Position numbers and translations under genes: made by a program. Of a DNA stretch of 64,000 nucleotides, positions 4,115 through 51,648 are shown one piece after another (position 1 is the stretch's first letter; the number at the start of each line of letters is the position of its first letter). The notes under the pieces were generated by a model. The model was not told the DNA's origin, searched no databases, and saw nothing but the letters and a program-made list of their open reading frames with translations. This DNA comes from an uncultured Verrucomicrobiae bacterium (GTDB lineage Bacteria; Verrucomicrobiota; Verrucomicrobiia; Limisphaerales; UBA11358): the NCBI GenBank assembly GCA_963804345.1, contig CAWDPX010000004.1:320181-384180 (forward strand). Direction: 5' to 3'.

Positions 4115-4741
4115 ATGACCAACAAGGCTTATGCTGACGGCAAAGGCCCGTCCTACATCTACACCCCCGCCGGACGATTGCAGACCCGCACCTGGGCGCG
4201 CACGGTGGGAGGCCAGCCTCTCACAACGACTTATTCGTACGACAACGCTGGTTTGCTATCGGCTATCGGCTATTCGGACGCCACTCTCGGCGTCACGAAC
4301 ACCTTTGACCGTTTGGGCCGGCTCACTCAACAATCAACCCTCAACTCTCAACTGAATTCGACTTACAACGACGCGAACGAACCGTTGACCGAATCCTACA
4401 CCGGCGGCCCGCTAAACGGTCTGAGCGTGACAAATAGCTACGACCCGCTGCTCCGCCACACCAAACTTTCCCTCATCTCTCAACTCTCAACCCTCAACTC
4501 GACAGCATACGGCTATGACGCAGCCTCGCGTTTACAGAGCGTTTCCGACGGCACAAATACTGCTATTTACAGCTATATTGCGAATTCACCGTTGGTAGGG
4601 AACATTGTATTTCAGCAAAACGGGACGACACGGATGACAACAACGAAACAGTACGATTTCCTGAACCGCCTCACGAGCATCTCCTCTGTCGGAGGGGCCG
4701 AGTTCCACGAGTCCCATTTCTACTTTCAACTATCAATATAA
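4115..4741 (+). pseudogene. RHS/YD-repeat protein, 5'-truncated upstream part (frame lost near 4698)
   Basis: YD repeats (YSYDNAGLLSAIGYSD, AYGYDAASRL). YD-like sequence continues upstream of the ATG to about 4082 (TDPFHDGQRGF) and then stops. The frame is broken by one extra C inside a repeat element. Confidence 0.8.
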
Positions 4742-4813
4742 TCAAGCCAACCAACGTACCCGTGCCGATCTCGGAGGGGCATCTGTCGGAGGGGCGAGTT
4801 CCACGAGCCCCAC
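4687..4813. repeat. two direct half-copies (plus a 10-nt partial) of the TCGGAGGGGCGAG element inside the RHS gene
   Basis: tgtcggaggggCcgagttccacgagtccca at 4687-4717, tcggaggggc at 4771-4780, tgtcggaggggcgagttccacgagccccac at 4784-4813. Confidence 0.6.
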
Positions 4814-4847
4814 TTATTGGGTCTATCAATACGACTCCCTTGGCCAT

Positions 4848-6431
4848 GTGACGAGCGGCAAAAAATACTGGTCCGACGGCACACCCGTCGCCGGACAACA
4901 ATTTGAATACGGCTTCGACGACATCGGCAACCGGAAATCCACGAAGAGCGGCGGCGATCAAAGTGGCGCAGGCCTCCGGCCTGCTTCTTACAGCGTCAAT
5001 AATCTGAACCAATACACGAGCCGTGATGTGCCAGGCTACGTAACCGTCCTCGGCTCGGCCAACTCGAATGCCACCGTGACGGTGAATCTCCAGCGGGCAT
5101 ATCGTTATGGAAATTATTTCCAGGACGAACTGGGCGTGAACAATTCAAGTTCCGCTCTTTGGTTTTCGCTGACCAATCTGGCCGTGTTGAACAACGGAAC
5201 CAATGCGGACATTGTGGCAACGAACACAGGCAACATCTTTCTGCCTATGACGCCGGAAACCTTCGGCTATGACTTGGACGGGAATCTGACGAACAGCGGT
5301 CGCTGGACGGTGACTTGGGATGCTGAGAACCGGGCGACTTCGTTCGCGAGTTTGATCAGCGCACCATCGGCATCAATGAAGAAAGTGGATTGCGCTTATG
5401 ATTTTCAAGGGCGCAGGATTCAAAAGATTGTTTCGACGAATAATGGTTCAGCTTGGATTCCCGTGTCCACGAACCGGTTTGTTTACGATGGTTGGAATCT
5501 GGTTGCCATTCTCGATTCTCAATCCTCCATCCTCGCTTCGTTTCAGTGGGGCAATGACTTGAGTGGTTCACTCCAAGGCGCGGGCGGCGTGGGCGGACTC
5601 ATTTCCATGACCGTTTATGCAGGAACGAATGCAGGGGCGTATTTCCACAGCTTCGATGGCAACGGCAATGTGGCGGCATTGGTGAATGCGGCGAACGGAG
5701 CGATGGCCGCGCAGTATGAATATGACCCATTCCTGGGAATTACCCGCGCTTCGGGCGCGCTGGCGTTCGTAAACCCATTCCTCGGCTCGACCAAGTTCTT
5801 CGATGCAGAGACGGGACTCTATTATTATGGCTATCGGTTTTATGATCCGAGTGCGGGTAGGTGGCCAAACAGAGACCCATTAGAAGAAAGCGGTGGGATT
5901 AATCTATATGGATTTATTGGAAATGCGCCGGAAAACGGAGTTGATTGGCTTGGAGCAGCTCTAAACTCGCCCCCTGGCGGGAACGAATTTGACCAGTGGC
6001 CTTACGCCCAAATTCCACCCAATTTGGGTGTAACATATTCAGCTGGGCCAGATATCACTGAAGCCTTAAAAGCGACGCTAAAACAAGTTGATAAAGACTT
6101 CTGGGCTCATCCCGATAGACAGTGTAAAGCGTGCGATATGTTGAATTTCCCAGGGCCAACATTAACTACTGATGTAACTGGAGCATTGGGTTCTTGGGAT
6201 ATACAACCATTAAAGGATATGGGTCAATCAGGACAACCTTTGGCTGGTGGAAAAGCTGGAACTGGAGATTGGGTGAGGACAGTCCAATTCCGCTATCGGA
6301 GCGGAAAAAGTAAAGTATATTGGGGTGGTGCAGTTAATTATGCACTCTGGGGGAGGGCCAACGAGTTGTGTTATGCTAGATTTCATGCTACAGCGTTCAG
6401 CTTAGAAAGAGCCTTGTGGTTGTTCACTTAA
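4848..6431 (+). CDS. RHS repeat-associated core domain plus AT-rich C-terminal toxin tip (continuation of 4115-4741; frame open from ~4686)
   Basis: GLYYYGYRFYDPSAGRWPNRDPLEESGGINLYGFIGNAPENGVDWLG is the RHS core end. About 160 aa of unrelated AT-rich sequence follow. Confidence 0.85.
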   Translation: MTSGKKYWSDGTPVAGQQFEYGFDDIGNRKSTKSGGDQSGAGLRPASYSVNNLNQYTSRDVPGYVTVLGSANSNATVTVNLQRAYRYGNYFQDELGVNNSSSALWFSLTNLAVLNNGTNADIVATNTGNIFLPMTPETFGYDLDGNLTNSGRWTVTWDAENRATSFASLISAPSASMKKVDCAYDFQGRRIQKIVSTNNGSAWIPVSTNRFVYDGWNLVAILDSQSSILASFQWGNDLSGSLQGAGGVGGLISMTVYAGTNAGAYFHSFDGNGNVAALVNAANGAMAAQYEYDPFLGITRASGALAFVNPFLGSTKFFDAETGLYYYGYRFYDPSAGRWPNRDPLEESGGINLYGFIGNAPENGVDWLGAALNSPPGGNEFDQWPYAQIPPNLGVTYSAGPDITEALKATLKQVDKDFWAHPDRQCKACDMLNFPGPTLTTDVTGALGSWDIQPLKDMGQSGQPLAGGKAGTGDWVRTVQFRYRSGKSKVYWGGAVNYALWGRANELCYARFHATAFSLERALWLFT

Positions 6432-32986: not shown

Positions 32987-33113
32987 AGCGTGGTTGTTTG
33001 AAGTCCCGTCCCATCCGGCAGGACGGTCCGAGCGCCCTTTTTTTGCCGCGTGAAGGCCGGACTCCGAACGCAAAAACTTGCCACGCGCCGTCCCGGCGCG
33101 GAAACTCCCGCGG

Positions 33114-34424
33114 GTGAACATCGAACTGCTCAACACCGGCAGCGAATTGATGCTGGGCCGCGTGCTCAACACGCATCAGCAATGGCTCTGCCGGCGTCTT
33201 GCCGATCTCGGTTATATTGTGACGCGCCAGGTGGCCGTGCCGGACACGGCACCCGACATTCAATCCGCCGTTCGAGAGGCGTTGAGCCGCGCGGATTTGA
33301 TCGTCACCACCGGCGGCCTCGGCCCGACCTCCGATGATTTGACGCGTGATTTGATTGCGCAACTGCTCGGCAAAAAGCTGCGGCTCGATGATGCGGTGCT
33401 CGACCACATCAAAAGGCGTTTTGCGGCGCGCAACCTGCCGATGCCAAAAAACAATGAAGTCCAGGCGCTGGTGCCCGAAGGCGCGCTGGTGCTGGCCAAT
33501 CCGAACGGCACCGCTCCGGGGCTGGCGATGGAAATCAAACCTTCGGAGGGGCGAGTTCCACGATCCCCAAATCCAATTCAAGTTGGGGGCTCGCAGAGCT
33601 CGCCCCTCCGAAAACAATGGCTCATCCTGCTGCCCGGCCCGCCGCGTGAGTTGCGTCCGATGTTCGACAATTTGGTCGTGCCATTGCTCCGGCGCGAATT
33701 CCCGCTGGACGTGCCGTTTGTCTGCCGCACGTTGCGGACGAGCGGCATCGCCGAATCTCTGGTGCAGGAAAAAATTGAAGCGCCACTGAACTCGCTCACG
33801 GCCGCCGGGCTGGGAATCGGCTATTGCGCGCGGACAGGGCAGGTGGACGTGCGATTGTCTGCGCGCGGCGGGGACGGGGGGAAAATTGTCCACGCGGCAG
33901 AAGCGGTCGTTCAAAAAATTCTCGGCGCGCAAATTTACGGTTTTGACGATGAGGAAATGGACTCGGTTGTCGTCCGGCTTTTGACCGGACGAAAGAAAAC
34001 TTTGGCGCTGGCCGAGTCCTGCACCGGTGGATGTATCGCAAATCATGTGACGAATGTGCCAGGCGCATCGGCAGTTTTTCTGGGCTGCTTCGTGACTTAC
34101 AGCAACGAATTAAAGCGGAAATTTCTCGGCGTTCACGCCGAAACGCTGGCGGCACACGGAGCGGTGAGCGAAGCGGTGGCGCGTGAAATGGCCGAAGGTG
34201 CACGCCGGCAAACTGGCGCGGATTTTGCCCTTGCCGTCACGGGCATCGCCGGGCCGGGCGGCGGAACAAAAGAAAAACCGGCGGGGACGGTTTTCATCGG
34301 GCTGGCCGGAGAGTTTGGAACGGTGGTTGAGCGTAAAATGAATCCTTTTGAGCGCGGGACATTCAAGGAAGTCACGGCGTGGCAGGCATTGGAAATGCTG
34401 CGTGTACGATTGGTTTGTTCTTGA
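33114..34424 (+). CDS. cinA: CinA-family competence/damage-inducible protein (MoCF + PncC-type deamidase domains)
   Basis: VNIELLNTGSELMLG (GTG start), VTTGGLGPTSDDLT, NPNGTAPG, LLPGPPRELRPMF, ESCTGG...GVS. The ORF is open from 33078. Confidence 0.9.
   Translation: MNIELLNTGSELMLGRVLNTHQQWLCRRLADLGYIVTRQVAVPDTAPDIQSAVREALSRADLIVTTGGLGPTSDDLTRDLIAQLLGKKLRLDDAVLDHIKRRFAARNLPMPKNNEVQALVPEGALVLANPNGTAPGLAMEIKPSEGRVPRSPNPIQVGGSQSSPLRKQWLILLPGPPRELRPMFDNLVVPLLRREFPLDVPFVCRTLRTSGIAESLVQEKIEAPLNSLTAAGLGIGYCARTGQVDVRLSARGGDGGKIVHAAEAVVQKILGAQIYGFDDEEMDSVVVRLLTGRKKTLALAESCTGGCIANHVTNVPGASAVFLGCFVTYSNELKRKFLGVHAETLAAHGAVSEAVAREMAEGARRQTGADFALAVTGIAGPGGGTKEKPAGTVFIGLAGEFGTVVERKMNPFERGTFKEVTAWQALEMLRVRLVCS
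33542..33612 (+). repeat. palindromic MITE/RPE-like element, full copy, in frame within cinA
   Basis: TTCGGAGGGGCGAGttccacgatccccaaatccaattcaagttgggggctcgcagagCTCGCCCCTCCGAA. Translated as SEGRVPRSPNPIQVGGSQSSPLR. Confidence 0.75.
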
Positions 34425-48858: not shown

Positions 48859-50682
48859 GTGCTGCCGAACAAACAGATTGAACTGAAATTGCAACAAGCC
48901 GTCCGCACGGTCCTGCCGGACGCGGATGCCTCCGCCGTTCTCGCCCGTCCGTGTCCCGATCCGAAATTCGGCGATTACCAAAGCAACGCGCTGATGTCGC
49001 TGGCCAAGTCGCGGAAAATGAATCCACGCCAACTCGCCACCGATGTGCTTTCCAAACTCGACGTCGCTGATTGGTGTGAGAAGGTGGAAATCGCCGGCGC
49101 CGGCTTCCTGAATTTCCGATTGAAAAGCTCCGCGCTCGCCAGCGCACTTCAATCTGCCGTCCGCGGCGAGCACCTTTTTTTCGATAAGACCGCGAGTCCG
49201 CGAACCGCCGTGATTGATTTCAGTTCGCCGAACGTGGCCAAGCCGATGCACGTGGGCCACATTCGCTCCACGATCCTCGGAGACAGCCTCGCGCGCACGC
49301 TGCGTCTGCTCGGCCACCGGGTCATCACCGACAACCACATCGGCGACTGGGGCACGCAGTTCGGCATGTTGCTGCTCGGCTGGAAACATCATCTCAAGCC
49401 CGACGGCTTGAAGGCCGATCCCATCGGCGAGATGGAGCGGCTCTATAAAATGGTCAGCGCCACCAGCGAAACCATGGAAACCGTCCGGGACGCCGCCCGC
49501 CAGGAACTCGTCAAGCTCCAGGGCGGTGATGCTGAAAACCTGAAGATCTGGCACGAGATGATTGCGCTGTCGCAACAGCAGTTTGACACGATTTACGGGC
49601 GGCTGGGCGTGAAGTTCGACCACACCTTCGGCGAAAGTTTTTACAATCCGCGCCTCAAACCGCTGGTGGACGAACTCGTCGCCAGAGGCATCGCGCGCGA
49701 AAGCGAGGGCGCGATTGCCATTTTCTTCGACGATCCGTCCCTGCTCAAGGAACAGCCCGCGCTCATCCGCAAGAGCGACGGCGGGTTCAATTACACGACC
49801 ACGGACCTGGCCACGCTAGCGTACCGGCTGGAAACCTGGCGGCCGGATGAAATCATTTACGTCACCGACGGCCGGCAGCAACTGCATTTCCAGCAGGTCT
49901 TCACCGCGTTCCGCAAATGGCAATCCGTTCTTTCGGAGGGGCGAGTTACACGAGTCCCCAATTCACAAGCCCTTGATTTTTCCGGCGAAAACAGTTTGGG
50001 TCTCTCGGAGCTCGCCCCTCCGAAAAATGAGGCGAAACTGGCGCACGTCTGGTTCGGCTCGATTCTCGGTGAGGACGGCAAGCCGTTTAAAACCCGCAGC
50101 GGCGAGACGGTGAAGCTGTCGGATCTGCTCGACGAAGCGGAGGCGCGGGCCCTTAAACTTGTTTCCGAAAAGAATCCGGCCCTGCCGGAGGCGCAACGCC
50201 GCGAAATTGCGCGGGTCGTCGGGCTGGGCGCCGTGAAATACGCCGATCTGCTGCCGAATCGCCAGAGCGATTACGTATTCAGTTGGGACAAGATGCTGGC
50301 GCTGCAAGGCAACACCGCGCCGTATCTGCAATACGCCTACGCGCGGATTAAAAGTATCTTTCGCAAAATCGGGGAAACTTCCAACTTCCAACCTCCAACA
50401 GCCAGCATCCACTTGGCCGCGCCGGAAGAATTTGCGCTGGCCAAGCATTTGTTGAATTTTGGGCTGACGCTGGAAGCGGTGGCGGAGGAATATCGGCCGA
50501 ATTTTTTGTGCAATTATCTCTACGAACTGGCCGGCAAGTTTACGTCTTTTTACGAAAATTGCCCCGTGCTCAAGGCCGACGACGCCACGCGCACGAGCCG
50601 GCTGGCGCTGTGTGACCTGACCGCCCGGGTTTTGAAGCGGGGTCTGGACGTCCTCGGCATCGAAACCGTCGAGCAGATGTAG
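48859..50682 (+). CDS. argS: arginine--tRNA ligase
   Basis: SSPNVAKPMHVGHIRSTILGD (HIGH), ..TRSGETVKL.., anticodon-binding C-terminus ..GIETVEQM. GTG start. Confidence 0.95.
   Translation: MLPNKQIELKLQQAVRTVLPDADASAVLARPCPDPKFGDYQSNALMSLAKSRKMNPRQLATDVLSKLDVADWCEKVEIAGAGFLNFRLKSSALASALQSAVRGEHLFFDKTASPRTAVIDFSSPNVAKPMHVGHIRSTILGDSLARTLRLLGHRVITDNHIGDWGTQFGMLLLGWKHHLKPDGLKADPIGEMERLYKMVSATSETMETVRDAARQELVKLQGGDAENLKIWHEMIALSQQQFDTIYGRLGVKFDHTFGESFYNPRLKPLVDELVARGIARESEGAIAIFFDDPSLLKEQPALIRKSDGGFNYTTTDLATLAYRLETWRPDEIIYVTDGRQQLHFQQVFTAFRKWQSVLSEGRVTRVPNSQALDFSGENSLGLSELAPPKNEAKLAHVWFGSILGEDGKPFKTRSGETVKLSDLLDEAEARALKLVSEKNPALPEAQRREIARVVGLGAVKYADLLPNRQSDYVFSWDKMLALQGNTAPYLQYAYARIKSIFRKIGETSNFQPPTASIHLAAPEEFALAKHLLNFGLTLEAVAEEYRPNFLCNYLYELAGKFTSFYENCPVLKADDATRTSRLALCDLTARVLKRGLDVLGIETVEQM
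49932..50024 (+). repeat. palindromic MITE/RPE-like element, full copy (93 bp), in frame within argS
   Basis: TTCGGAGGGGCGAGttacacgagtccccaatt...tttgggtctctcggagCTCGCCCCTCCGAA. Translated as SEGRVTRVPNSQALDFSGENSLGLSELAPPK. Confidence 0.75.
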
Positions 50683-50829: not shown

Positions 50830-51648
50830 ATGAAAAAATTTGTTGTATATTTAGCCGTTGTTTTGTTGTTCTCCAGTCCAAGAACTTTCGCCACGACAGT
50901 CTTTTCGGACAATTTTGATTCTTATGTAAACGGGAATCTGGCGGGCACCTCTCAAGACGCATTGGGCCAGGGAACCTGGCGTCAAACCAGCACGTCGGCC
51001 ACAACCCCGATCCAGGTCGTCAATGGCGCAATTGCCCTCGGCTCCTCCGGGCAGGACGTATATTCGCCCTTGACCACGCCGACAATTTTATCCGACGGAC
51101 AAAGCATCTATTTTAGCCTGGCCATTAATGTTTCCGCCGCACAATCCGGCGGCGATTATTTTTTGCATTTTTCCCCGAACGCCGGTAATTCCTCTCTTTT
51201 TTACAGCCGCTTGTTTATCAAATCCGTCACGGGCGGTTTTGAGCTGGGTTGGCTGGGAACGAGCGGCGGAACCGGCCTCCCCACTTATGGAACTTCTGTG
51301 TTGAGTTTGAACACCCCTTACCAGGTGGTCATGGCATATAATTATTCCGCCACCACGCCAACCAATTCCACCGGCGCTGTATATGTCAACCCGACGGATC
51401 CTAATATCGGCAACAACACGGCTTACTTGACGGCCAACTGGCTTACCACCGCAACCCCGGATACCAATTCGATTGCGGCGGTGAATTTTCGCCAGGGATC
51501 GGCCGGAAGTGCTCCAACTTTGACGGTGGATAATCTGGTCGTGGCAACTTCTTTTTCTGACGTGGTGACAGTTCCAGAGCCGTCCACTCTCGTTTTGGCT
51601 GGACTGGGCGGGCTGGCGTTTCTAGGTGCCCTGCGGCGCAAACGCTGA
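50830..51648 (+). CDS. PEP-CTERM sorting-domain secreted protein
   Basis: Signal peptide. C-terminal VPEPSTLVLAGLGGLAFLGALRRKR. Confidence 0.85.
   Translation: MKKFVVYLAVVLLFSSPRTFATTVFSDNFDSYVNGNLAGTSQDALGQGTWRQTSTSATTPIQVVNGAIALGSSGQDVYSPLTTPTILSDGQSIYFSLAINVSAAQSGGDYFLHFSPNAGNSSLFYSRLFIKSVTGGFELGWLGTSGGTGLPTYGTSVLSLNTPYQVVMAYNYSATTPTNSTGAVYVNPTDPNIGNNTAYLTANWLTTATPDTNSIAAVNFRQGSAGSAPTLTVDNLVVATSFSDVVTVPEPSTLVLAGLGGLAFLGALRRKR

Follow-up and report, generated by a model that had tools for sequence, protein, structure and literature searches.

A palindromic insert in frame within argS

The window analysed here is a stretch of 64,000 nt (C4:320181-384180) from G000, a Limisphaerales metagenome-assembled genome (MAG), and the subject of this report is a nested palindromic element, which we call T1, that lies in frame inside the arginine–tRNA ligase gene argS. 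The MAG comprises 4.64 Mb in 29 contigs with a G+C content of 57.6% (89% complete, 3% contamination) and the named genomes closest to it are MAGs from palsa and SPRUCE peat, labelled ‘Limisphaerales bacterium’ and ‘Verrucomicrobiota’. The argS open reading frame (ORF) runs from 48859 to 50682 on the + strand and codes for 607 aa. Its identity is given by the names of its homologues and by the Pfam domains PF03485, PF00750 and PF05746 found in them, and residues 10-353 and 392-607 of the protein from the window can be aligned with Escherichia coli ArgS (4OBY; E = 3e-151).

T1 occupies 49933 to 50023 (+ strand; G000 C4:370113-370203), a unit of 91 bp that starts with TCGG and ends with CCGA. Its left arm (49933-49958, +), delimited with an arm consensus from 134 exact cores, consists of TCGGAGGGGCGAG as the outer stem, TTACA as an internal loop and CGAGTCCC as the inner stem, and codes for SEGRVTRV. 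The right arm (49998-50023, +) reads GGGTCTCT-CGGAG-CTCGCCCCTCCGA, which is the ‘B’ flavour of the arm, and codes for GLSELAPP. Between the arms lies a variable apical loop (49959-49997, +), which in the G000 copy of argS has an extra block of 15 nt (SQALD) that is missing from most of the orthologous copies. The region 49925-50031 folds as a single long hairpin (−51.4 kcal/mol, z = −6.4). The 14-mer TTCGGAGGGGCGAG is present without mismatch at 49932-49945 on the + strand and 50011-50024 on the − strand, as well as at 33542/33599 in cinA, and when up to two mismatches are allowed there are five matches against 0.97 expected, a number that was reached in none of 100 shuffles. The first-pass annotation of this DNA had described a palindrome of 93 bp at 49932-50024, in frame inside argS. 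The palindrome and its exact 14-bp termini are real and the near-perfect hairpin can be taken as 91 to 93 bp, but the conserved unit is the 91 bp given above, the span of 93 bp starting on the third base of a codon.

The insert encodes 31 residues in frame (S359-K389), reading SEGRVTRVPNSQALDFSGENSLGLSELAPPK directly ahead of LAHVWFGSILGEDGKPFKTRSG. Within ArgS it falls between the helix that ends in QQVFTAFRKW and the strand KLAHVWFG, ahead of the KMSKS-type loop, and according to the alignment with 4OBY the loop has seven residues in E. coli and 38 in G000. This placement was taken from the 4OBY sequence alignment because an AlphaFold model based on 40 close homologues had a mean predicted local distance difference test (pLDDT) score of 51 and was unusable. 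Judging from the topology of class I synthetases, the loop would be situated where the last strand of the Rossmann fold has its N-terminal end, away from the active site. It had been proposed that the argS element is an insertion, and that it is a true one, specific to the lineage, is borne out by order-level relatives, which like E. coli ArgS have a short loop at this position; the ancestral loop, (R/K)W(H/Q)PEAKVKL, is present in 43 more distant relatives. The peptide was not found to outlive the palindrome in any of these sequences: every lineage with SEGRV..ELAPP keeps the palindrome in its DNA, and distant lineages are without the insert.

T1 is a dispersed repeat with many copies inside genes

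The 11-nt core of T1, GGAGGGGCGAG, occurs 134 times in G000 (5.7 expected), and a census of this genome with a degenerate 26-nt arm gave 99 paired elements of 59-99 bp together with 35 solo arms. In a T1 element an outer stem of 13-15 bp (T-CGGAGGGGCGAG) is followed by an unpaired internal loop of 5 nt in one of two flavours, TTACA or CTCTG, and then by an inner stem of 8 bp, CGAG(C/T)CCC; the apical loop is 15-40 nt long and differs from copy to copy. The ends are T-CGGAGG / CCTCCG-A, without a terminal GTAG or CGTC tag, and GTAG was seen only within the internal loop of an order-level variant of T1, CTCGCGTAGCTCG. A subfamily of 26 intergenic copies, each 78 bp long (e.g. C19:43237 and C21:17346), has a conserved loop, CATTTTCAGAGGCATTCGATGAGTCAGGG, and is nested in a longer palindrome of about 130 bp, TGTCTCAAAACAATTTCTCG[T1]ATACTTTTGAGACGGTCTC. 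Within the same GTDB genus 34 of 163 genomes carry T1, and so do 19 of the 301 genomes that were sampled from the order as a whole, among them a genome from another family with up to 60 copies; the reversed pattern, used as a control for these genome searches, gave 0 matches. A search of Rfam with T1 matched no family.

One sister copy is in the window itself, at 33542-33612 (+), where it lies in frame in cinA (ORF 33078-34424). The MoCF_biosynth domain of CinA spans this insert and orthologous copies of T1 are present in two other genomes (G093 and G083). That the argS and cinA copies belong to one family had been suggested in the first-pass annotation and was upheld by formal alignment, in which both arms are retained and the centre alone differs. 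The two copies were also said to be read in the same frame and orientation; this is correct for the orientation and for the frame at the left end (SEGRV), but the copies leave in different frames (ELAPPK in argS, SSPLRK in cinA) because their lengths, 91 and 69 bp, differ modulo 3. The argument that had been built on this, namely that the same stop-free frame in two housekeeping genes speaks for selection, is a weak one, as all three frames of the left arm are open, and a mean of 3.3 of the six frames is open per copy.

Thirty-two of the 99 paired elements are each contained in a single ORF whose coding score, by our own codon-usage model, is positive on both sides of the element, and the intergenic copies make up about two thirds of the 99. 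Since the genic set is defined by location within a single stop-to-stop ORF, the frames of these 32 copies are open by construction. When 30 of the genic segments were tested against Pfam, 28 matched a family, and for 24 of the segments the insert is spanned by the domain or has domains on both sides. Hosts supported by Pfam include LigA, HemL, XseA, Lnt, PheT, TlyA, BioA, BioF, HrpB, RsmB, HypF, KsgA, IleS, HemY, PrmC, GlnE, MetH, peptidase U32, CinA, HisC, a PEP-utilising enzyme and PurM, while one copy (C18:5808) probably lies 5′ of its gene. All three entry frames are in use (SEGRV in 16 copies, GGAS in 6 and RRGEL in 10) and this split amounts to no significant frame bias (chi-square ~4.8, p ~0.09). 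The frame that reads CTC GTG TAA occurs only with the stop-free ‘B’ arm (..GLAELAPP..), which agrees with a survivorship filter. The 67 copies outside the genic set yielded only four weak candidates for a gene split by the element, and orthologues without the insert exist for argS, cinA and ileS. Inserts that are skipped by translational bypass, such as the hop in T4 gene 60 or the mitochondrial byps, were considered as a model and rejected, since the genic copies of T1 lie in frames that are (again by construction) open.

Conservation of the argS copy at the DNA level

At least 18 loci (7 genomes of GTDB species and 11 metagenome contigs) carry T1 in argS with the same junctions, the same orientation and an alignable loop, and the same insert peptide is present in many ArgS protein clusters at 80-96% identity; we infer that the argS copy is old and inherited. 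At fourfold degenerate sites diversity (pi4) is 0.10 in the T1 arms (9 sites) as against 0.36 at 216 sites elsewhere in argS (Mann–Whitney p = 2.5e-4), and mean pairwise identity is 88-93% in the arms compared with 62% in the apical loop and 59-67% in the adjoining argS-specific flanks. Pair 24-98, a variable site in the arms, is GC in nine sequences, AU in eight and unpaired in none (17/17 co-vary), and this change costs an Ala/Val replacement. Four arm pairs are altered on both sides, and the observed values were matched in only 0-2 of 500 shuffles. As synonymous sites are conserved, the loop and flanks diverge and the pairs co-vary, it appears that the arms are held by something that acts on nucleic acid and not on the peptide. 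The argS arms may thus be kept close to the family consensus, and complementary to each other, by a process at the DNA level, for which the candidates would be recognition by a protein that mobilises or binds the element, conversion from other copies, and correction with the hairpin as template.

Alternative cassettes at argS, cinA and ileS

Within the genus the argS sequences on either side of the insert, ...TTCCGCAAATGGCA and AAACTGGCGCACGTCTGG..., are near-invariant while the cassette between them varies. Depending on the genome, this site holds T1, one of at least six other near-perfect hairpins, tandem heptamers or a short loop. The alternative hairpins fold at −28 to −61 kcal/mol and include T2 (coding for SGILPEE..), T3 (ERGSPEP..), T4 (ERRAP..LGAP), T7 and T8, as well as T5, a flavour-2 element that is present in reverse orientation in G014; the arms of T3 and T4 are also dispersed repeats within G000. 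The heptamer arrays, which are likewise in frame and are present in many genomes, include (CAATCCG)4-5, (CGAACTC)4 and (CTCGACA)3 (L057-L063 and L110-L121).

On a quick IQ-TREE phylogeny of ArgS, made with the loop masked, insert type does not cluster: T1 (17 rows) needs 15 changes, at least nine of them on branches with a support of 95 or more in the Shimodaira–Hasegawa-like approximate likelihood-ratio test (SH-aLRT), and a single clade for the T1-bearing ArgS sequences is rejected by the tree. Sister ArgS pairs whose flanks are 92-97% identical differ in the cassette alone (L102 with T1 and L111 with T3, L098 with T1 and L107 with T2, L095 with T1 and L109 with T8), and in four sister pairs the divergence of the 60-nt windows adjoining the cassette is not raised. 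One T1-bearing metagenome contig, L104, has as its nearest ArgS relative L004 (from G022, in another family of the order; SH-aLRT 100), which has an empty short loop. The loop and the upstream junction of the T1 copy in L104 are unlike those of other T1-argS alleles, and it may represent an independent insertion at the same codon.

The same type of replacement was found at all three of the sites tested. At the cinA site the alleles are T1, inverted heptamer arrays with folds down to −77 kcal/mol, plain arrays and a short loop. The ileS site (G000 C21:163181-163244; orthologues L314-L343) lies between QWFIKIDH and TFRAAALAEIDRVKW, and holds T1 in seven genomes, at least seven other palindromes (mostly tagged GTAG...CTAC), and the T8 family again; in G144 the left T1 arm is present alone, as a half-element, and empty alleles read CAC-GAGAAA-TTCCGC.

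Among the cinA orthologues L174-L203 there are many genomes in which the hairpin arms are themselves made of tandem heptamers and their complement, for example (GGATGGA)n...(TCCATCC)n, which is the fold at −77 kcal/mol, and (GGGTCTG)n...(CAGACCC)n. These hairpins seem to have arisen on the spot, through inverted duplication of a heptamer array.

Interpretation and alternatives

We think it probable that the argS insert is a copy of a selfish, non-autonomous repeat of Limisphaerales Verrucomicrobia, T1, resembling the Rickettsia palindromic elements (RPEs) and intragenic dimers of repetitive extragenic palindromes (REPs), that is tolerated in a permissive loop. T1 inserted into the ArgS loop, where, as judged from the sequence, its frame is open and in register so that the 31-residue extra loop would be read through, and the genic copies would be survivors, that is, insertions that keep the frame, bring in no stops and fall in permissive surface loops. 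The argS loop may be one of several fixed ‘landing pads’ in which, from one close relative to the next, cassettes of different palindrome families and of heptamer arrays seamlessly take one another's place. The conservation of the arms together with the seamless and recurrent reuse of one codon position suggests a sequence-specific, scar-free mechanism, the most economical form of which would be target-specific excision and insertion of the peel-and-paste type, carried out in trans by an enzyme like the Y1 transposases or REP-associated tyrosine transposases (RAYTs); short-patch homologous recombination may also spread alleles. No target-site duplication was visible in the one pair of empty and filled sites available (L004/L104), and the bases that flank T1 extend the palindrome (TTT...AAA) rather than repeating directly. 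The start of T1, T3, T4, T5 and T8 alike is xxG GAG, phased with the Glu codon of the ancestral sequence, and the ancestral argS loop, CCGGAGGCGAAG, resembles the T1 end TCGGAGGG(G)CGA(A/G)G, although this resemblance is post hoc and unproven.

Several observations weigh against this interpretation. Of 73 Y1_Tnp loci in 11 T1-bearing genomes none has T1 arms on both sides, and the two with a T1 arm or complete element on one side within 1.5 kb are taken as incidental. The GIY-YIG and DUF559 genes of G000 are not adjacent to T1, being at least 3 kb from any copy. A long arm-bounded T1 element with an ORF was sought in G000 and none was found; the only long arm-bounded unit there (C2:70229-70587, 359 bp, with perfect T1 arms) has no ORF, and its loop contains another inverted-repeat element (TTTTGGATTGCGGTGG...CCGCCGCAGTCCAAAA), a nested insertion. 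In these searches, then, neither a RAYT nor another transposase cognate to T1, for which the first-pass annotation had suggested a check, came to light. Moreover, the length from TCGG to CCGA is 0, 1 or 2 modulo 3 among the genic copies, so that no simple fixed-end rule accounts for the preservation of frame. The gene calls in G000 come from our own codon-usage model, which was trained on that genome, and the MAG is only 89% complete, while the ArgS tree has many short branches. Finally, conserved arms with compensatory change fit a selected hairpin as well, and the patchy distribution of alleles could stem from recombination among species and not from transposition.

These last two points correspond to two rival explanations. 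If the hairpin were functional in place, as an RNA or DNA element selected, for instance, for translational or transcriptional pausing, for mRNA stability or processing or for protein binding, with the various palindromes interchangeable, then the conservation of the arms at synonymous sites and across families of the order and the compensatory G-C/A-U change made at the cost of Ala/Val replacement would be expected, as would the finding that almost every member of the genus carries, at each of three fixed sites, either a repeat array or some hairpin that folds strongly (−30 to −77 kcal/mol). We nevertheless regard this as unlikely. A short loop with no hairpin at all is ancestral and is also what several members of the genus have, the heptamer-array alleles fold weakly (−3 to −12 kcal/mol), T1 is dispersed among some 100 unrelated places, both intergenic and genic, and there is the negative result from Rfam; in addition the arms are conserved in sequence and not in pairing alone, which speaks for recognition of that sequence and not for a generic hairpin. 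The other explanation dispenses with ongoing mobility. Each cassette would have arisen once, through an old insertion or snap-back template-switch synthesis, and the resulting ancient polymorphism would have been shuffled by short-patch homologous recombination via the conserved flanks. The argS-specific junctions (CAATCCGTTCTT.. / ..AAAATGATGTG) that the T1-argS alleles have in common argue for one origin of this allele, the almost invariant flanks would serve such recombination, and the inverted heptamer arrays of cinA with their apparently local origin fit it too. Yet in four sister pairs the 60-nt windows beside the cassette show no elevated divergence, at least eight alleles would have to be kept through many speciations at three separate loci, and T1, T3, T4 and T8 are dispersed multi-copy families, which must have spread by some insertion process; for these reasons we hold an account without mobility to be improbable. 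As for an artefact of assembly or binning, in which a repeat was wrongly collapsed into argS, G000 is a MAG with some contamination and palindromic repeats are hard to assemble, but the same insert with the same junctions is present in an independent metagenome contig (L094, 97% identity). Another 17 contigs or MAGs, drawn from different studies, have it too, as do dozens of protein clusters, and this explanation seems to us extremely improbable.

The reading of T1 as a tolerated selfish repeat can be extended to the idea that defined loops on the surface of essential enzymes (those of argS, cinA and ileS, with probably some 30 others) are reusable landing pads, in which heptamer arrays and hairpin cassettes from several families like REPINs (pairs of inverted REPs) are inserted, precisely excised and exchanged in frame and without scars by a single-strand machinery, of the Y1/RAYT type or another, that recognises short end-like motifs, CCGGAGGCGAAG mimicking the element end TCGGAGGGCGAAG. 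We put this forward tentatively, as a possibility that is rather more likely to be wrong than right. Were it true, these loops would be natural hypervariable peptide-insertion sites in housekeeping proteins, with arms that are maintained by an enzyme rather than by the host.

Comparison with known repeats

RPEs (Ogata et al., 2000; 2002; reviewed in PMC10969869) are multi-copy palindromes, many of them in frame in unrelated housekeeping genes, where they add a peptide that is tolerated, and they encode no transposase. T1 is similar in being a dispersed palindrome without an encoded transposase that has in-frame, peptide-adding copies in housekeeping genes; it differs in size (59-99 bp, compared with ~100-150 bp for RPEs) and in its host, a free-living peat verrucomicrobium. 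The combination of a hypervariable apical loop with conserved arms also sets T1 apart. The likeness is one of apparent mode of action, T1 seeming to work as an RPE does, and membership of RPE-1 to RPE-10 by sequence homology is not claimed. To our knowledge alternative cassettes at one site are no described feature of RPEs.

Intragenic REP dimers in the ORFs of several species encode 20-30 residues, and tRNA synthetase genes are among their hosts (Di Nocera, De Gregorio and Rocco, 2013; PMC3733652). In the same study of GTAG/CGTC REPs intragenic GTAG repeats were most numerous in Opitutus terrae, a verrucomicrobium, and recB of two Xanthomonas species carried different REPs at about the same site (PMC3733652). 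T1 shares with these repeats its location in frame and its tRNA synthetase hosts, and the alternatives to T1 in ileS have the GTAG...CTAC tags, whereas T1 in G000 has TCGGA/TCCGA ends, a two-tier stem and no association with a RAYT. What goes beyond that study is the same-site replacement across a genus at three loci, together with the constraint at the DNA level.

REPINs are defined by a flanking RAYT gene and their copies are overwhelmingly extragenic (Bertels and Rainey, 2011; PMC3116915). T1 resembles them in having two inverted conserved units (of 26 nt) and a variable spacer that form one long hairpin, in vertical persistence over the long term, in the presence of several families and several Y1 genes per genome, and in the lack of target duplication; it is unlike them in that none of the 73 Y1_Tnp loci has it on both sides and about one third of its copies are genic. 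Bacterial MITEs (miniature transposable elements with inverted repeats), such as Correia and ERIC, are short and multi-copy with terminal inverted repeats and are occasionally fused in frame to ORFs (PMC10969869). T1 has the terminal inverted repeats and the small size of a MITE, but it shows no target-site duplication, no related autonomous insertion sequence was found in G000, and it is the arms and not the whole element that are conserved between copies. The small dispersed repeats of Nostoc, reportedly described by Elhai and co-workers in 2008, are said to be hairpins of 21-27 nt with compensatory changes that can be nested, are tied to tandem heptamer arrays and have a mobilising enzyme that was not known. 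The link with heptamer arrays recalls these repeats, from which T1 differs as a hairpin of 60-100 bp that lies in frame in essential genes.

Elements of the kind of T1 are thus already known, from RPEs and the REPs of Opitutus terrae, and it is the turnover of cassettes at the same site that is much less described. Selfish palindromes that are read as protein are a classic curiosity, mainly from Rickettsia, and T1 adds a case that is abundant in free-living Verrucomicrobia of soil and peat, with argS as a dated example. Because one insertion is common to many lineages, the constraints acting on DNA and on protein can be separated inside one essential gene, and because unrelated hairpin families have reused one codon position, in each of three conserved genes, on near-identical genetic backgrounds, mobility of the REP/REPIN type, including target choice and seamless excision, becomes directly testable through comparative genomics and assays in vitro. 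The T1 sites also mark loops in ArgS, IleS, CinA and other proteins that tolerate 20-35 extra residues. For annotation they are a warning, as inserts of this type inflate the lengths of proteins and may lead alignments and phylogenies astray.

Other features of the window and genome

Two or three solo or partial T1 left arms lie on the + strand of the window at 4700-4830, between the ORFs 4115-4741 and 4848-6431, in an RHS/YD-repeat region. One of the arms here reads GGASSTSP in the RHS frame, and the RHS gene may be frameshifted or rearranged. In an intergenic region of G000 (C4:97,900-98,260) solo right arms of T1 directly adjoin (AACATTC)n arrays. A further family of palindromes, GGTAGGGC...GCCCTACC, reads ..GRA(E/G)LP.GQDAQQRVPT.. 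in frame in several proteins, with sites at G000 C21:68566 (HypF) and C24:17691 (a DUF3516 protein) and in L177 (cinA of G036).

G000 has 13 Y1_Tnp matches, among them two small genes with classical REP flanks (ATAG-CCCGGCG...). These two RAYT-like Y1_Tnp genes, at C4:544947-545285 and C4:730248-730589, have multi-copy short REPs on both sides, ATAG-CCCGGCGTTnnAACGCCGGG and GTCCCnnnGGGAC, and this REP/RAYT arrangement is unrelated to T1. Directly downstream of argS in the window, an ORF at 50830-51648 ends in a PEP-CTERM-like sorting signal (VPEPSTLVLAGLGGLAFLGALRRKR).

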